Shown here piece after piece: positions 7,338 to 58,037 of a stretch of 64,000 nt of DNA. The notes under the pieces were generated by a model that was not told the origin of the DNA, ran no database searches, and was given only the letters and a program-made list of their open reading frames with translations. This DNA comes from a virus, in IMG/VR virus record IMGVR_UViG_3300025646_008465, positions 1 through 64,000 of that record; one strand, 5' to 3'. Every line of letters begins with the position of its first letter. Position 1 is the stretch's first letter. The translations under genes and the position numbers were made by a program.

Positions 7338-7345
7338 ATAAATAT
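7338..7345 (-). promoter_or_regulatory. Putative late promoter motif ATATTTAT
   Basis: Recurs about 15-30 nt upstream of at least 10 structural or lysis genes. Confidence 0.55.
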
Positions 7346-20215: not shown

Positions 20216-20247
20216 TAAATATACGAAGGGGATCTAGCATAGCCAAA
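20216..20247 (-). promoter_or_regulatory. Bacteroidota-type promoter overlapping an AGGGGAT/ATCCCCT inverted repeat
   Basis: TTTG-N20-TATATTTA on the minus strand. Confidence 0.6.
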
Positions 20248-20274
20248 TCCCCTCGCAAATTTCTTTAAGAAAGA

Positions 20275-20541
20275 TTACTGTTGTACTCCCTCTAAGAATA
20301 CTAAACCACCAGCAGCTTGAATAGCAGCTTTACCAGCAGCAAAATCAGCTTGTTCAGCTTGTAATACTAAACCCATTACTTCAACACAATGTGTTTCATC
20401 TTCAGCTCCAAAAAAAGCAACACCAAAGTCACTATCTTCAGGAAAAGCAATAATGTATTTAGAGTCTACTACAGCTACTGATCCTTCAGTTTCAGGGGCT
20501 ACTACAGAAATAGCTCCATTTTCTTTAATTACGTGTACCAT
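20275..20541 (-). CDS. Small acidic hypothetical protein
   Basis: 88 aa ORF starting just after the preceding stop. Confidence 0.6.
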   Translation of the reverse strand: MVHVIKENGAISVVAPETEGSVAVVDSKYIIAFPEDSDFGVAFFGAEDETHCVEVMGLVLQAEQADFAAGKAAIQAAGGLVFLEGVQQ

Positions 20542-20542
20542 G

Positions 20543-21757
20543 TTAATAAGTTATTTGTTTATCGTTATTGTCTTTATTTTTTTTATCTTGTAACATTTTC
20601 CAGTAATTAAATCTAGCCATTTCTTCTTGATCTAATACACCGTTATTATTTGTATCAAATTGTTTCTTATAAATATCAAAAGGATCTTGTTCTTCTAATT
20701 CTTTTATTTGTTTTCGTTTTCTCCAACCTGAAATTGATGCTTCTTTGGTTTCTTGGATTTTTTCTTGTTTAAATTGATTTTCAATATCTGTTAAATCTTC
20801 ATCTTCTAATTCTTCATCATCCCATTCTTCATCTTCTAAACCATCCATTAAAGTTGAATCCCACTCTTTTAACTCATCTTCGGTGTAGATATCAGAACCC
20901 TCATTGTCAGATATAATTACCTTTTCACCATAGATATTTTCTTTGGTTTTAGAACGTAATTGTGCAAAAGCAAAGTTAGCAGCAATTACTAAAGCAATAG
21001 CTAAAGGATCAAATACAAAAATAATAATTAAAAGAAGTACATTGATAATTTTATCCATAGACACCCCAGTTAATCCTGAAAGGTATTTAAGTGGGCCTAA
21101 TTCTCCTGCTAAATTATTACCTGTTTTAATTTCTACAATTTCGGATTCGTAATCAAATAATTGAGTATTTAATTCATCTACTTTGCCATTCAATTCAGTT
21201 TGGCGAACAATAGCTTGATCTAATTGTTTTTCAAGTGCTTTACGGGTTGCAGAAGAAGTTGATTGAATTAATTGACCTTGTGCGTTTGTGTACGATATAA
21301 CGTTGTTAGATAAACCTTTTCTTAAATCAGCAATGGCTTTATCGGTATTTTCTTTTTCAACGTTATAAACGCTTAACTGTTTTTGGACATTATCTCTTTT
21401 AGTTTCAACTAATGCTACTTGAGCATCAATTGTTCCTGCTTTATTGGCTGTTTCTTGATAAGCAGCAGATAAAAAGCCATAAATACCCATTGAGGTAATT
21501 AAAATTAATACACCACAAGCAATTGTGAGGTATATTTTTAATACTTTAGGTAAGGTTTTACGATATTGGTATAACAAAGAAGCAATTACTAATTTAGCTA
21601 CTTCTAATGAAGAAGCCATTATAATAACTGCAAAGGCAGCACCCGCAAAGAGTTTGCTAAGACCACTAACTGAATAGAAAGCAGCCGAAGCACTTACTGA
21701 CAGAGCGGAGAGTGCTATTAAAAACGGAAATATTCTTTCTTGTATTTTCTTTAACAT
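20543..21757 (-). CDS. Membrane protein with a long coiled coil
   Basis: Likely start at 21757 (MLKKIQERIF). Three N-terminal TM segments, a coiled coil of about 120 aa, a further TM (IIIFVFDPLAIALV) and an acidic tail. Confidence 0.75.
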   Translation of the reverse strand: MLKKIQERIFPFLIALSALSVSASAAFYSVSGLSKLFAGAAFAVIIMASSLEVAKLVIASLLYQYRKTLPKVLKIYLTIACGVLILITSMGIYGFLSAAYQETANKAGTIDAQVALVETKRDNVQKQLSVYNVEKENTDKAIADLRKGLSNNVISYTNAQGQLIQSTSSATRKALEKQLDQAIVRQTELNGKVDELNTQLFDYESEIVEIKTGNNLAGELGPLKYLSGLTGVSMDKIINVLLLIIIFVFDPLAIALVIAANFAFAQLRSKTKENIYGEKVIISDNEGSDIYTEDELKEWDSTLMDGLEDEEWDDEELEDEDLTDIENQFKQEKIQETKEASISGWRKRKQIKELEEQDPFDIYKKQFDTNNNGVLDQEEMARFNYWKMLQDKKNKDNNDKQITY

Positions 21758-21758
21758 T

Positions 21759-22355
21759 TTACTTATCTTTTTCAGTGGCATATTTAACACCCATAATAGT
21801 ACCTATAATACTAAAAGAGTTAGTTAAAAGTATACCAAATAAATTTGACCAAGTGGATTCCAATATAGGATTTTCTTTTCCGGCAACCAAGGTAAAGGCA
21901 AAAAGAAGTGTAGTAATTAAACCTACTCCTAAAATTACCCATAAAGCTACTGTAACTATTTTACCGATAAGTTCAAATTGAGTTTTCTTTTGCATTAACT
22001 CTAAATCCTCTAATGCTTTGCCCATTCCTTTTTCTGCTTCTGCTCGTAACTTTTCAGCTTCCCAAGTAGCATTTTTTGCTTCTTCTAAAGCAGATTGAAG
22101 CTCTCCCATTAAAGTATCATTTTCTTCTTGTTTAGCAACTAATTCTTTATTTTGTTGTTGAACTTGTTTAGTGACGTCTAATCGTTTTCTGCGAATAGAG
22201 ATATCTTTTTCTTTACATAATTGAAGGTAGTCCTCAAACTCTTTATCACCTTTAGGGGCTTTAAGAAGTTTAAGGAAATTACCTTCTACATAGATTTTTT
22301 TAGTTTTAGCAACCTCTAGTAGAACATTCCTAGTATGTTCTGTTACTTCAATCAT
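21759..22355 (-). CDS. Coiled-coil protein with two C-terminal TM helices
   Basis: Q/E/K-rich coiled coil followed by two hydrophobic helices ending IIGTIMGVKY. The start overlaps the receiver stop. Confidence 0.75.
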   Translation of the reverse strand: MIEVTEHTRNVLLEVAKTKKIYVEGNFLKLLKAPKGDKEFEDYLQLCKEKDISIRRKRLDVTKQVQQQNKELVAKQEENDTLMGELQSALEEAKNATWEAEKLRAEAEKGMGKALEDLELMQKKTQFELIGKIVTVALWVILGVGLITTLLFAFTLVAGKENPILESTWSNLFGILLTNSFSIIGTIMGVKYATEKDK

Positions 22356-22792
22356 TATCTATAAATTTTAAATGAAGCTGTTTTTGCTTTATAAGCATTA
22401 TAGTCTTCCATAAACTCCATTAAACGAGGTTCAATATCATCAGACTTTATAATCCAAAACTGTGCTCCTACAGCTTTAGCTTTATTAATTTCTTCTTCAT
22501 CCTCTGAAGAGGAAATGATTCCAATTACTACCCCGTCTCCATATTCGTAATTGATTTTTCTAATCATTTCGATACCGTCCATAGAAGAACCTATAATATT
22601 TAAATCTACAAACACACATTCAGGACGTTCGTGGTTTGGATCATCAGGGAACCATTCTTTAAATTTAGCATCAGCTTCATCAGAGCTATCTAAAGCTTCA
22701 ATAGATAAAGCCATATCCAGAATTGAACATGCATCTTCAAATACTAGATGAAATAAATTTTCATCGTCTATTAACATTAATGTGTTAATCAT
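22355..22792 (-). CDS. Single-domain response regulator (receiver only)
   Basis: LIDDE acidic pocket, phospho-acceptor Asp in FVDLN, MDG.E, ISSS and conserved Lys in IIKS. Confidence 0.92.
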   Translation of the reverse strand: MINTLMLIDDENLFHLVFEDACSILDMALSIEALDSSDEADAKFKEWFPDDPNHERPECVFVDLNIIGSSMDGIEMIRKINYEYGDGVVIGIISSSEDEEEINKAKAVGAQFWIIKSDDIEPRLMEFMEDYNAYKAKTASFKIYR

Positions 22793-24075
22793 TAGTTTAA
22801 TTTAATTTTTATTTTAGTACCTTCTTTAACTCTTCCTATAACTATTTCAAAGCCATGTTCCTTAAGAATTTCAATACAGATATTAAGTCCTAATCCTGTA
22901 CCTTGTTCTTTTTGGCCTTCTTTTCTTGCATAAGGTTTAGAAAACTCCCAAAATTCTTTTGGAGTTAATCCACGTCCGTTGTCTTGTATACATATAAAAT
23001 CTCCTTCAGAATATATTTTAACCCATTTAGTAGGAGCATCATTGTATTTAAGACCATTACGTATTAAATTATCAATAGCTGTACAAAATAGTGCTTCATT
23101 TACCTGTAAATCTTTAGATAAATTCTTATCTAAAATAACTTGGTTTTTATAAGCTGTAAGGCGTAAATAATCCTCAAGAATGTTTTTTATATTACACTTA
23201 GTTACAGACATTTGAGCATTATTTTTTACTAAATTAGTAAATTCATAAACTCCAGAATATACTTTTTGGGTATGACTTAATCCATCCTCTATTAATTGTA
23301 GTGGAGATTGGATTCTTAATTCATTAATTTGTTCCTCTGTTAATCTTCTTTTTAACGATTTAATACCTCTAGGAATATAAGTATTAATCCCAGAATGCAT
23401 ATCATGTCTAATGATTTTAGCTGCGTGTTCTAAGTAAATACTTTTTTGTTTAACTTCTTCTTCAGCTTTATGTTGTGTTGTAACATCAACAGCTATTTTA
23501 AGTACTTTATGATATTCTCCTTTATCATTTTGTAAAGGAGTATACGTACCAAATAACCATACTGAGTGTCCATTTTTACCTATACGTTCAAATTCCCCAG
23601 AAACAAATTCTCCTTTACGTAATTTTTCCCAGAAAATTTTATATTCTTTACTTGATTTAAAATCAGCAGTACATAAATTAGAATGTTTGCCATTTAGTAT
23701 TTCATTTTCTGAGTATCCTACTACATTAAGAAAATTTTGATTAGCTGATAATATAGTACCATCTATTCCTAGAGTTACTATTAAATTAGAGTTATTAATT
23801 GCTTTTAGTTGGGTATCAATTTTAGCCTCTTTAATTTTAGTTTTATTGAAAAACTCTCTAACTACTACAAAGAAAGGAGGCATAAATGATATAACAGATA
23901 GCCACTCAAAATAATGTGTAAATGTAGAATGATGAATGTACCTAAATACTACTAGTGTTTTAAATACAAAAAACACTAGCATAATTAAAGTTGCTACAAG
24001 TAGACAGATTCTACTTCTTATAGATATACCTTCTAAAGCTGACATTTCTTGAGACCAAGTTTTTCGAAGACCCAT
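22792..24075 (-). CDS. Membrane PAS-domain sensor histidine kinase
   Basis: Two TM helices; PAS/PAC domain (AN.NFL..GYS..E..GKH...W..L..G....GEFERI.K.G..VW....YTP...KIA.DVT); H-box IRHDM; N-box NLIRNGLKY; G1 DNGRG; G2 GTGLGL. The start may be at 24045. Confidence 0.93.
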   Translation of the reverse strand: MGLRKTWSQEMSALEGISIRSRICLLVATLIMLVFFVFKTLVVFRYIHHSTFTHYFEWLSVISFMPPFFVVVREFFNKTKIKEAKIDTQLKAINNSNLIVTLGIDGTILSANQNFLNVVGYSENEILNGKHSNLCTADFKSSKEYKIFWEKLRKGEFVSGEFERIGKNGHSVWLFGTYTPLQNDKGEYHKVLKIAVDVTTQHKAEEEVKQKSIYLEHAAKIIRHDMHSGINTYIPRGIKSLKRRLTEEQINELRIQSPLQLIEDGLSHTQKVYSGVYEFTNLVKNNAQMSVTKCNIKNILEDYLRLTAYKNQVILDKNLSKDLQVNEALFCTAIDNLIRNGLKYNDAPTKWVKIYSEGDFICIQDNGRGLTPKEFWEFSKPYARKEGQKEQGTGLGLNICIEILKEHGFEIVIGRVKEGTKIKIKLN

Positions 24076-24221
24076 TTAGAGGGACAAAACTTGGTCCAAA
24101 CACCAACATTAAGCATAACAATTACAAATAATATAACCCACCAATTTTGGAAAAGTGCCCCAGCAAATAATACTAAAGACATTAAAAGATAAACCGCTCT
24201 AATAGAAGTCCAATTTTTCAT
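24033..24221 (-). CDS. DUF2892/YgaP-like two-TM micro-protein
   Basis: 62 aa with R...L, two TM helices and a FCP...F.KLG motif; overlaps the kinase start. Confidence 0.7.
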   Translation of the reverse strand: MKNWTSIRAVYLLMSLVLFAGALFQNWWVILFVIVMLNVGVWTKFCPSKWVFEKLGLKKCQL

Positions 24222-24223
24222 AA

Positions 24224-24337
24224 TTAATTCATTGAAATAGTTTGTATAAAAGCAACTTTAAGACGAATCCAAACTCTATTCCAAAATGGAAGTGCTTTAA
24301 ATTCATCAGTATTAAAAATATCTTCTAATTCTTTCAT
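24224..24337 (-). CDS. Micro-protein (37 aa)
   Basis: The ATG overlaps the endolysin TAA: MKELEDIFNTDEFKALPFWNRVWIRLKVAFIQTISMN. It fills the gap almost exactly. Confidence 0.6.
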   Translation of the reverse strand: MKELEDIFNTDEFKALPFWNRVWIRLKVAFIQTISMN

Positions 24338-25257
24338 TATAAACTTGTTAACATATCCATCAATTCTTGTTGAGGGAACATATCAACTTTATCTTTACGA
24401 GTATTAGTATGAGTCCACAAACCTTTTACTTTTCCGTAATATGCATTTTCATTAAATTCAAAAGCATCAGCACCTTTTTCTTTAATTAAAGCAGGTAAAC
24501 CAGCTCTTACATCAATACCATCTCTTTCAGCAATCCAAAGAATCCAATCTTTTAATACTTCAATCTGTTTATCAGAATAACGATGCCATAATGAATGACC
24601 TCTGAATGGTTTAGCTAGTTTAACTATTTCAGAATCAGCTACTTTAGCACCAGCATAAGTTTTACCATCTACAACATACCCAAAATTACATACTTCAATT
24701 CCTACTGAATTTTTATGCATTGTTTGGGATCCGTTTTTGCCTAAATGATATCCCCAATTTCCTTCTGGGAATGCTTGTACTAAAACACCATCATATTGGT
24801 TATCATCTCCTTTACATGAAGGGCCACCTAATACAAATTCAGTTGCAATTTTACCAATTTTATCAGCATCCCATGCTTTAATTGTATTGAATGGATTATG
24901 CCAACCTGCTGTGTGGTGTAAAAATAACCATTCTGCTTTAATAGGACCTGCTAAATACTCATCAGTAGGCATAAAATATTCAATTACTTCTAAACCATTT
25001 TTAGTAACATACTTATTTTTAGTATAAACCCCTGATTTTTTAGCTTCAGTAATTATTCGGGATACATCGGTGTCTAATAAACCCATTTTTGATAATGTGC
25101 TAGGGCCTACGATACCATCAGCAGTTAATCCGTGAGCTGCTTGCCATTTTTTAACAGCAGCTTCAGTGCCGGGGCCGAAATCACCATCTGCTTTTACTCC
25201 AATTACTTCTTGGATATCTTTTACTAATTCTCCTTTAGAGCCAATTTTAATCAACAT
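24337..25257 (-). CDS. Endolysin: peptidoglycan-binding domain plus Amidase_2 N-acetylmuramoyl-L-alanine amidase
   Basis: DGDFGPGTEAAVKKWQAAHGLTADGIVGP (PG_binding_1); zinc amidase motifs LHHTAG, SVGIE and H...RKDK.D. Likely start at 25257. Confidence 0.92.
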   Translation of the reverse strand: MLIKIGSKGELVKDIQEVIGVKADGDFGPGTEAAVKKWQAAHGLTADGIVGPSTLSKMGLLDTDVSRIITEAKKSGVYTKNKYVTKNGLEVIEYFMPTDEYLAGPIKAEWLFLHHTAGWHNPFNTIKAWDADKIGKIATEFVLGGPSCKGDDNQYDGVLVQAFPEGNWGYHLGKNGSQTMHKNSVGIEVCNFGYVVDGKTYAGAKVADSEIVKLAKPFRGHSLWHRYSDKQIEVLKDWILWIAERDGIDVRAGLPALIKEKGADAFEFNENAYYGKVKGLWTHTNTRKDKVDMFPQQELMDMLTSL

Positions 25258-25471
25258 TTTCTTCTTTTTTAGATTTGGGAACAAATTTTTCAACAACAGT
25301 ACCAAATACAGTTGCTATTGTTAAATATTCTACTGCTGCTACTGCTTCTTCTTTATGTACTTCACTACAAGTAAATAAAAATACTACTAGTGAAAGAAAG
25401 CCAATGGTACCAAGCACACGTTTGTGCGAGGTACCTTCGTTATTGGCAAACATATTTTTAAAAAAATTCAT
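25247..25471 (-). CDS. Small holin-like membrane protein
   Basis: S.KRV motif, two TM segments and a charged C-terminus; directly upstream of the endolysin. Confidence 0.6.
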   Translation of the reverse strand: MNFFKNMFANNEGTSHKRVLGTIGFLSLVVFLFTCSEVHKEEAVAAVEYLTIATVFGTVVEKFVPKSKKEENVD

Positions 25472-25474
25472 GGT

Positions 25475-25636
25475 TTATTTTTTAATTAAAACAGACCACA
25501 AACCACCTACTAAAGTGATTAAAGCACCACTTAATTCAACAAAAGTGCTTTCATCTACTAAACCTTTGGCCACTAAAATACCACCTAAAAAGGTTAACGA
25601 GTGACGCAATACACCTAATACTTGTTCTTTATTCAT
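25475..25636 (-). CDS. Putative holin (53 aa, 2 TM)
   Basis: Translated by hand as MNKEQVLGVLRHSLTFLGGILVAKGLVDESTFVELSGALITLVGGLWSVLIKK. ATATTTAT motif at 25661-25668. Confidence 0.7.
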   Translation of the reverse strand: MNKEQVLGVLRHSLTFLGGILVAKGLVDESTFVELSGALITLVGGLWSVLIKK

Positions 25637-25669
25637 AATGTAAAAATTTAAATTGTGATTATAAATATT

Positions 25670-25693
25670 AAAAAAGGGCGCACATGCGCCCTT
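25670..25693 (-). terminator. Intrinsic terminator
   Basis: AAGGGCGCA-TG-TGCGCCCTT followed by a U run on the minus strand. Confidence 0.75.
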
Positions 25694-25726
25694 CTTAATC
25701 TAAAATGGAAATTTTGTATAAATTAT

Positions 25727-25936
25727 TTATTTTAATAAACCTTTTACCCAAGATTTTACAATATCCCAGTTACGAGTTGCAAATACACCAAACGCAAATC
25801 CAGCGTAAACTTTGTAACCAAAGGCCCATAAAAATAAACCTGCGATGAGGCCTAATACGCCTTCAATTCCATTTGCTACAATCCAATTTTTTACAATAGT
25901 AAAAATAGATTTGATAAAATTTAATACACTTTTCAT
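25727..25936 (-). CDS. Small membrane protein
   Basis: 69 aa, amphipathic and hydrophobic; ATATTTAT motif at 25961-25968. Confidence 0.65.
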   Translation of the reverse strand: MKSVLNFIKSIFTIVKNWIVANGIEGVLGLIAGLFLWAFGYKVYAGFAFGVFATRNWDIVKSWVKGLLK

Positions 25937-25970
25937 AATAATTTAGTTTTGTTGTACGTTATAAATATTA

Positions 25971-47893: not shown

Positions 47894-48012
47894 TTTGATT
47901 TAGGTTATGTTTTGTTATAAATATTATATTTTTTTTTAAAAGTCAATTTAAGCTAAAATTGTTTTTTTAACTAAATTGTATTTTTCCCTATAAATAAATA
48001 TTATAACTTTTA

Positions 48013-57935: not shown

Positions 57936-58037
57936 TTAGATGGTTAAGTTTGTTATCTATGATAAATATTAAAAAAATATTAGATTATTGGAATTAAAGA
58001 AGGGGTTTTAGCCCCTCCAAATTTAAATATAAAAATA

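Follow-up and report, generated by a model that had tools for sequence, protein, structure and literature searches.

A two-component relay ending in a transmembrane hairpin protein, encoded with lysis genes in uncultured phages, as a possible control of lysis timing

Background

The time at which a phage lyses its host is a central fitness trait, and to our knowledge environmental control of lysis has so far been known only as lysis inhibition in the T-even phages and ICP1, where it works via small antiholins. Here we examine a set of genes that may provide another kind of control: a histidine kinase, a stand-alone receiver and a 198-residue membrane protein (cc198), which are encoded among lysis genes on a 64,000-nucleotide stretch of viral DNA (positions 1 to 64,000 of the 76-kb IMG/VR virus record IMGVR_UViG_3300025646_008465; hereafter the window) and which, with two small upstream genes, we call the module. 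In T4, lysis inhibition involves the holin T and the antiholins RI and RIII (PMC11413866, PMC8385771), and lysis inhibition has likewise been described for ICP1 (PMC7182436). As would be the case for the module, a late condition is sensed in these phages and lysis is retimed by protein-protein control of a lesion protein, with the genes lying in or near the lysis cassette. The means differ, however: small dedicated antiholins bind the holin directly, with no phosphorylation, in T4 and ICP1, whereas the module would use a kinase-to-receiver relay, or in sister phages a fused PAS or GAF sensor, together with a new hairpin protein. Searches with Pfam and PHROGs found no sequence or family similarity between the module and T, RI or RIII.

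A second parallel is the LytSR system of staphylococci and Bacillus with its LrgAB and CidAB proteins (PMC5717393, PMC2996381). There, too, a two-component system is tied to holin- or antiholin-like membrane proteins and to membrane energisation. LytS is a sensor of its own type with many transmembrane (TM) helices, and LytR is a DNA-binding regulator of lrgAB transcription. The phage receiver, in contrast, has no DNA-binding domain, so that any control it exerts should be post-translational; moreover, the putative effector is unrelated to LrgA or LrgB, the system is viral, and domain searches of the module detected neither a LytS-type sensor nor a LytTR domain.

The module also resembles the CheA-CheY, KinA-Spo0F and DivJ/PleC-DivK systems, in which a HisKA-type kinase is paired with a REC-only protein acting by protein contacts, but it has no HPt- or Spo0B-like partner and no motor switch target, and the partner of its receiver is a virus-only membrane hairpin. 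With LiaFSR/VraSR and BceRS-AB it shares a kinase whose two TM helices flank a short outer loop (about 14 residues in the phage protein), accompanied by small membrane proteins (here p62 and p37), and the VraR and LiaR receivers are among the structures closest to a model of the phage receiver. Systems of that type combine a HisKA_3 kinase with a NarL-type DNA-binding regulator, whereas the DHp domain of the phage kinase aligns with that of the HisKA-type kinase HK853 and the phage receiver carries no effector domain. Formally, the module is a HisKA-type two-component system with a single-domain receiver, and its third component is new. A full-text literature search found no account of phage lysis gated by a two-component system or a PAS domain; one paper on pelagiphages mentions phage histidine kinases, but these lie beside curli genes and are unrelated.

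Results and discussion

A kinase and a stand-alone receiver with intact signalling residues

We are highly confident that the module encodes a real, functional and phage-specific relay that ends in the hairpin protein cc198. We put at roughly 0.5 the probability that this relay sets or shifts the moment at which the membrane is permeabilised and the cell lyses, the hairpin acting as a regulated holin or antiholin; this estimate relies on synteny with lysis genes, predicted late co-expression and the anatomy of the hairpin. All genes of the window lie on the minus strand, and the three core genes follow one another as kinase (22792–24075), receiver (22355–22792) and cc198 (21759–22355). The earlier note on this DNA, which was made from the sequence without database searches, had reported these open reading frames (ORFs), overlaps of stop and start at 24337, 22792 and 22355, intact kinase boxes and intact receiver catalytic residues, and had pointed out that the receiver lacks a DNA-binding domain. 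These observations were borne out: the ORF coordinates give exactly these overlaps, of one base each, the junctions are similar in most relatives, and the conservation described below extends the statements on catalytic residues from one copy to the family.

The kinase (427 residues; likely start at M11, position 24045) consists of two TM helices, a PAS domain (PAS_3, 2.2e-12), a DHp domain and a CA domain (HATPase_c, 1.5e-12). Pfam HisKA gave no score on the window copy; from residue 223/224 onward, the DHp and CA domains align with HK853 (2c2a, 3dge). The H-box RHDMHSG, with H224, is invariant across 84 distinct kinase homologues, and the N, G1 and G2 boxes (DNLIRNGLKYN, DNGRG and GTGLGL) are invariant or nearly so. 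From its His-Asp context, H224 is the predicted phospho-acceptor.

Hydrophobic stretches read from the sequence at residues ~23–43 and ~59–72, with about 14 residues between them, give the kinase the predicted layout of an intramembrane-sensing kinase, with two TM helices, an outer loop of fewer than about 25 residues and no periplasmic domain. About half of the family (43 of the 84 ORFs, 240–339 residues long) has no additional sensor and runs straight from the second TM helix into the DHp domain. Other members carry one PAS domain, as in the window, or a GAF-like domain plus PAS (about 590 residues), and one lineage has a PAS domain without TM helices. The earlier proposal that the phage senses the redox or energy state of its host was overstated, since it was drawn from the PAS domain, which is absent in about half of the kinases and has a modest likeness to MmoS (3ewk, the best PDB match, E 2.9e-10) and to a NifL model (E 4.4e-10); for the PAS domain of the window, this likeness is at most a hint of flavin or redox sensing.

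Phages with closely similar receivers can have very different kinases. In one close relative, L015, the receiver is 96% identical to that of the window and the kinase 59%, with a nonsynonymous divergence (dN) of 0.30 at a synonymous divergence (dS) of 0.58 for the kinase and a dN of 0.026 for the receiver. Judging from such comparisons, the sensor input appears to be exchanged while the relay output stays fixed. Mosaic evolution, with swapping of kinase or sensor between close relatives, is suggested when L015 and L004 are compared with the window. In five further loci (L139, L232, L244, L259 and L279), two kinase genes stand upstream of a single receiver and cc198.

The receiver (145 residues, REC only, with a conserved C-terminal extension of 20 residues) has no output domain. 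It matches Pfam Response_reg at 2.5e-8, with 34.5 bits against a cut-off of 30.2, and a search of PDB sequences with its profile at E 1e-5 returned no REC chain and only a designed TIM barrel. Because the sequence is this divergent, we modelled the structure. The AlphaFold model has a five-stranded REC fold (pLDDT 87, pTM 0.82) that places the acidic pair D9 and D10 just past strand 1 (5–8), D63 and S94 at the ends of strands 3 (59–63) and 4 (89–94), and K116 just past strand 5 (112–115), and a Foldseek search with the model returned Spo0F, VraR, LiaR and CheY at probability 1.00. These five residues are invariant in an alignment of 28 sequences, whose mean column identity is 81%.

A transmembrane hairpin protein and its fused counterparts

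The third protein, cc198, is the proposed output of the relay. Its alignment falls into a conserved N-domain (residues ~1–45), a basic stretch (RRKRL-ITKQVQ-QNKEL), a coiled coil whose length varies, and a TM hairpin at the C-terminus. The juxtamembrane segment and the second TM helix are near-invariant (GILLTN-FSI-GTIMGVKY), and conservation across the protein peaks in this helix, which shows small-xxx-small spacing (G174, T178, S182, G185, G189), a pattern that serves helix packing in pinholins. In the structural model (pLDDT 85.8), a small alpha/beta cap is followed by one helix from residue 38 to 157 that continues into the first TM helix, a five-residue turn and the second TM helix; the stalk would be an estimated 130 Å long, as measured on the modelled helix. 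Since cc198 has no signal peptide and has a basic C-terminus, the stalk and cap should be cytoplasmic and within reach of the receiver. With 198 residues, of which about 130 are cytoplasmic, the protein is unlike classical holins despite its two TM helices and its place in an endolysin operon. We considered cc198 as an HPt- or Spo0B-like phosphotransferase and rejected this, as its alignment contains no invariant histidine.

An exhaustive profile search recovered longer cc198-like proteins, whose architectures were read by Pfam and by inspection of the sequences. In these fused forms a sensor takes the place of the N-domain and the hairpin is almost unchanged: GAF, coiled coil and hairpin (P0149); PAS-PAS, coiled coil and hairpin (P0170); and PAS, coiled coil and hairpin (P0175, P0158). 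For the PAS-PAS-hairpin form, 253 IMG/VR stretches gave a match; 80 loci were retained from these, and in none of the 80 did tblastn find a receiver, kinase core, p62 or p37. The sole matches to the kinase were PAS domains, 33–42% identical to the PAS domain of the window kinase. The fused gene occupies the same slot as the kinase version, after DnaB-RNRb-RNRa and before or beside endolysin, holin and a homologue of the 415-residue protein described below. Where a fused locus has 3 kb or more of flanking sequence on both sides (22 loci), a known lysis marker lies no farther than 3 kb away in 11 cases, in several of them at a distance of 16–800 nucleotides, and this count is a lower bound, as the search was limited to families from the first locus set.

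One locus thus comes in two architectures, namely sensor kinase, receiver and N-domain-stalk-hairpin, or sensor-stalk-hairpin, and the N-domain occurs together with the receiver, a sensor taking its place in loci that have no receiver. Because the fused forms keep the hairpin and drop the kinase and the receiver, the hairpin is the predicted output by a Rosetta-stone argument; on these architectures, the hairpin would act as effector, with the coiled coil relaying the signal to it and the N-domain serving as an input in place of a sensor. The simplest reading of the co-occurrence of N-domain and receiver is that the receiver probably binds the N-domain.

Two further kinds of fusion were seen. 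Three proteins of 318–349 residues (P0254, P0262 and P0267, the first and last 45–46% identical to P0262) join the N-domain and basic stretch of cc198 to a soluble HisKA plus HATPase_c core. These fusions were not located in IMG/VR, and a metagenome scan gave ordinary kinase-receiver-cc198 modules matched in pieces; if they are real, the N-domain may serve for receiver docking or as an input in more than one setting. P0190 (348 residues) combines the first 130 residues of a cc198-like protein with a permease of the FecCD type and is probably a chimera of assembly or gene calling.

The same data bear on the idea that the module is aimed at host signalling, with the phage kinase or receiver cross-talking to host two-component pathways, either by draining phosphate from them or by mimicking a single-domain regulator of the host (e.g., for envelope stress or for gliding and the type IX secretion system, T9SS) and cc198 as a scaffold. 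A receiver conserved beyond catalytic need, as if it had to fit a conserved partner, and a kinase input that is swapped freely, as in L015, are what this idea would predict. However, the constant neighbour of the receiver is the phage's own cc198, to which it is translationally coupled, the one-component forms drop kinase and receiver while keeping the hairpin, and the second TM helix shows more conservation than an anchor alone would call for. We consider a host-directed role improbable and take cc198, which the earlier note had already singled out as a candidate partner and which proved to be the constant one, as the probable recipient of the receiver's signal.

The module is phage-borne and under purifying selection

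Scans of IMG/VR gave 123 confirmed stretches with the kinase as query and 111 with the receiver. Among 135 loci, the kinase was present in all, the receiver and cc198 in 134 each, p62 in 116 and p37 in 97. After removal of duplicates, 86 distinct IMG/VR loci remained, in which the gene order is always kinase-receiver-cc198, and the trio is also kept in more distant metagenome contigs. The genes of the module overlap by 1–8 nucleotides or nearly abut in most loci; in others, receiver and cc198 are separated by the gene for a small membrane protein or a lipoprotein. The median ratios of nonsynonymous to synonymous substitution (dN/dS) against the window copy were 0.08 for the receiver, 0.16 for p62, 0.21 for cc198 and 0.23 for the kinase.

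At E ≤1e-5, the receiver query matched 3,782 protein clusters (90% identity), nearly all nameless, from contigs of up to 174 kb, and further contigs, up to 328 kb long, came from the metagenome scan. A set of 1.84 billion proteins contained only 252 representatives (50% identity) of the cc198 family, fragments in many cases, and the Atlas clusters of this family are 100% viral.

The earlier note had proposed comparing the synteny of the trio in phage and bacterial genomes, and this comparison places the trio in phages. Among 185,579 species genomes, only six loci were found, all on contigs of metagenome-assembled genomes (MAGs) from five phyla and all with the trio kept, and no isolate genome carried the module. 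One of these contigs has a T4-type split topoisomerase II and another a virion protein, and at least these two of the six are therefore mis-binned phage DNA; searches of the MAGs with the window tail sheath and phrog_23 placed no sheath on the module contigs. On the 89-kb contig of a Bdellovibrionota MAG (L138, 9805–14240), the trio adjoins PrkA, SpoVR and DUF444, a stress trio of the yeaG-yeaH-ycgB type, and other neighbours are a papain-like protease (Peptidase_C1), a D12 methylase and Fpg; this contig may be of phage or of bacterial origin.

A passenger acquired from a bacterium, with no part in the phage life cycle, might be suspected, as the kinase and receiver domains are of ordinary bacterial types. 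The breadth of the family in viral contigs, with its thousands of receiver-matching clusters, the strong purifying selection, the absence from isolate bacterial genomes and the restriction of cc198 to viruses speak against this view, which we regard as close to refuted. For the same reasons (the species-genome scan, the virus-only cc198 and purifying selection), the module was rejected as a bacterial moron.

Linkage to lysis genes

To describe the surroundings of the module, neighbouring ORFs were clustered and families were assigned to the clusters c4 (Phage_holin_4_1, the phrog_199 holin), c13 (a second endolysin family, phrog_3000 and phrog_33083), c73 (a DUF5675 protein, which we infer to be a cell-wall enzyme), c143 (a weak CHAP or NlpC-P60 protein) and c15 (a lipoprotein of 47 residues with a signal ending in LASC and a weak Rz-like spanin match, E 0.0045). 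Forty-eight distinct loci retain three or more ORFs on either side. In 29 of them, a recognised endolysin or holin is encoded inside the module or no more than four ORFs away, and the number rises to 35 when TM74, a holin-like protein described below, and the small lipoprotein are counted. For a genome of about 160 kb, we estimate that a gene picked at random would be this near the lysis cassette in a few percent of cases. A trio lying mostly away from lysis genes, the outcome that the earlier note had named as speaking against its proposal, is thus not what these loci show; that note's description of the signalling genes as embedded in the lysis cassette stands for the window, where they share one predicted transcription unit; in most relatives they are linked to lysis genes, though not in the remaining loci (see below).

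The arrangement of the linked genes varies. We found TM74-endolysin-p37-holin-p62-kinase-receiver-cc198; p37-p62-kinase-receiver-cc198-TM74-endolysin-holin; an endolysin on the opposite strand directly before the kinase; an endolysin directly after cc198; a lipoprotein gene between receiver and cc198; and, in some loci, RNR genes directly before p37 with no lysis gene in view. The module-linked endolysins belong to at least four families. Since both arrangements and endolysin families vary, this pattern argues that the link between module and lysis genes is kept by selection, although it is not universal.

Several other genes recur at these loci. The c15 lipoprotein lies between receiver and cc198 in L059, L113 and L123 and after the endolysin in L040, L066 and L117, and a 164-residue multi-TM coiled-coil protein (c34) lies between receiver and cc198 in nine loci. 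In one lineage (L039, 2623–3570), a Band_7/SPFH membrane-scaffold protein is encoded directly upstream of p37-p62-kinase.

Operon layout and a candidate late promoter motif

In the window, the operon is a single packed run between two intrinsic terminator-like hairpins, one at 25671–25696 (11 pairs, 6 of them GC, with a T run) and one at 20226–20254 (13 pairs). Directly after the first hairpin, at 25661–25670 and about 25 nucleotides 5' of the ATG of the first gene, stands the motif TAATATTTAT, of which the motif at 25661 given in the earlier note, ATATTTAT, is a part. The motif is real in the sense that the window holds seven exact copies against 1.24 expected, all of them on the coding strand and intergenic. 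The TAATATTTAT(AA) sites on the minus strand are at 7338, 25661, 25961, 40567, 47917, 47994 and 57962, mostly 15–30 nucleotides before an ATG. The copy at 47917 precedes the tail sheath gene and that at 57962 a fibre gene, and others stand upstream of further structural genes and of lysis genes; an exact-copy search of the window found none upstream of replication genes. Because the motif is common to the sheath, fibre and lysis units, we regard it as a candidate late promoter element in phages of this group. If so, the holin, endolysin, kinase, receiver and cc198 would form one predicted late transcription unit.

This layout is also relevant to the suggestion that the receiver controls phage gene expression through RNA polymerase or a late factor, with the membrane proteins as input only. 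Single-domain receivers do act on many kinds of partner, and a possible sigma-like gene (c289) lies upstream in one lineage, as read by eye and unconfirmed by Pfam. On the other side, the receiver has no DNA-binding domain, a module behind a late-type promoter has little left to regulate, and the fused PAS- and GAF-hairpin forms exist without any soluble output; a transcriptional role is very unlikely in our view.

The tight run described in the earlier note holds from the holin onward. The first ORF in its range, which encodes a 69-residue membrane protein without a family match (25727–25936), is a separate small transcription unit with its own copy of TAATATTTAT upstream (25961–25970), and the hairpin at 25671–25696 lies 3' of it. 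The run itself starts with a holin of 53 residues (25475–25636; Phage_holin_10, the Pam3 gp28 family, Pfam E 8.3e-16), followed by TM74 (25247–25471), a holin-like endolysin partner of 74 residues with two TM helices and no family match, and by the endolysin (24337–25305; likely start ATG at 25257). The last has Pfam and PHROG endolysin matches, namely PG_binding_1 at 2.6e-13 and Amidase_2 with 27.7 bits against a cut-off of 26. In relatives, the TM74 family stands directly upstream of four types of enzyme (Amidase_2, c13, c73 and c143), which supports a holin-like role.

Two small conserved genes precede the kinase. The first, p37 (24224–24337), is a 37-residue ORF that in many relatives lies between the endolysin and a Phage_holin_4_1 gene. 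The second, p62 (24033–24221), encodes 62 residues with two TM helices and a nearly invariant CPSKW motif. Its match to PF11127 (YgaP-like_TM/DUF2892) is weak for the window copy (E 0.015, 15.9 bits against a cut-off of 25.3); ten of 28 family members match at E ≤0.05, the best at 2.3e-5, and no relation to LiaF was found. As p62 occurs with the kinase version and not with the fused version, it is probably an accessory membrane partner of the kinase on the input side.

Downstream of cc198, the operon continues with a 415-residue multi-TM coiled-coil protein (20543–21790) and ends with an 88-residue ORF (20275–20541) for which no relatives were found. Both lie outside the conserved core, the former being present in 30 of the 135 loci. 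The coiled coil of the 415-residue protein is periplasmic, its tail is acidic and resembles an EF hand, and its family follows cc198 or the PAS-hairpin gene in about 30 loci. A homologue is encoded in the cultured phage immuto by gene immuto26A_86 (L002, 7657–8802), five genes after immuto's holin and chitinase.

The phage and its probable host

The CheckV completeness of the record is about 47%. Structural genes of the window include those for the tail sheath, virion proteins and fibre proteins, and genes of replication and metabolism include DnaB, a recombinase, SSB, both RNR subunits, thymidylate synthase and queuosine-pathway genes. The closest cultured phage is Flavobacterium phage vB_FspM_immuto (160 kb), with a tail sheath identity of 53%, and for this reason the host of the window phage is probably a member of the Flavobacteriia.

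How the relay may act on lysis

In the mechanism that we propose, the membrane kinase, which has almost no outer loop, would autophosphorylate on H224 late in infection, assisted on the input side by p62, in response to the membrane state of the infected cell and, where a PAS domain is present, perhaps to its redox state. The phosphate would pass from H224 to D63 of the stand-alone receiver, which would then bind the small cytoplasmic N-domain of cc198. The long, probably dimeric coiled coil would carry the signal to the C-terminal TM hairpin as the effector, and the hairpin, as a regulated holin or antiholin, would advance or delay permeabilisation of the membrane and hence lysis.

Several points weigh against a role in lysis timing. 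A Phage_holin_10 protein and a second holin-like gene are already present, and a further lesion protein is not obviously needed. For cc198, neither Pfam nor PHROGs gave a holin, antiholin or spanin match, NCBIfam gave no holin match, and a Foldseek search of its model against the PDB returned no structural relative and only coiled-coil noise. Between 13 and 19 of the 48 well-flanked loci (a quarter to 40%) have no recognised lysis gene within four ORFs, and the loci are related to one another, so that such counts are not independent events. The prediction of late expression comes solely from the sharing of a motif. Finally, no cultured phage was found to carry the module: the receiver and cc198 had no match in 50,697 GenBank phage records, and the kinase had only three unrelated partial matches there.

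Some of these points, that is, the lack of a holin family for cc198, the holins already recognised in the phage and the loci without nearby lysis genes, would be expected if the relay and the hairpin served a membrane role other than lysis, such as an ion leak or channel that tunes membrane potential, superinfection exclusion, or membrane remodelling for assembly. Nearness to lysis genes would then be a mere clustering of late membrane-protein genes, and other membrane proteins are indeed encoded nearby (the 415-residue protein, c17, c34 and the Band_7/SPFH protein). Yet the link to endolysins survives rearrangements and spans at least four endolysin families, the module is interleaved with a holin in many relatives (endolysin-p37-holin-p62-kinase), and fused forms lie directly beside endolysins, at 16–800 nucleotides in several loci. 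We therefore consider a non-lytic membrane role unlikely, while giving it more weight than the other alternatives, and prefer the reading in which the relay governs lysis timing. The full statement of that reading, namely that a large group of aquatic phages uses a phosphorylation switch of its own to time lysis, in which the kinase reads the membrane or redox state of the infected cell and a new type of holin or antiholin is flipped via a receiver-bound stalk, and that sister phages use a fused sensor instead, is tentative, and we hold it with somewhat less than even confidence.

Conclusions

Hundreds of related uncultured phages keep this set of genes, mostly adjoining their lysis genes. If the proposed role in lysis is true, the module would be the first signal-transduction-gated lysis clock in viruses, and it would mean that abundant environmental phages process information on the state of their hosts with signalling parts of bacterial style. 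Stand-alone receivers would also gain a new family of effectors, and the module would be a compact, portable switch that leads from a sensor to the membrane.

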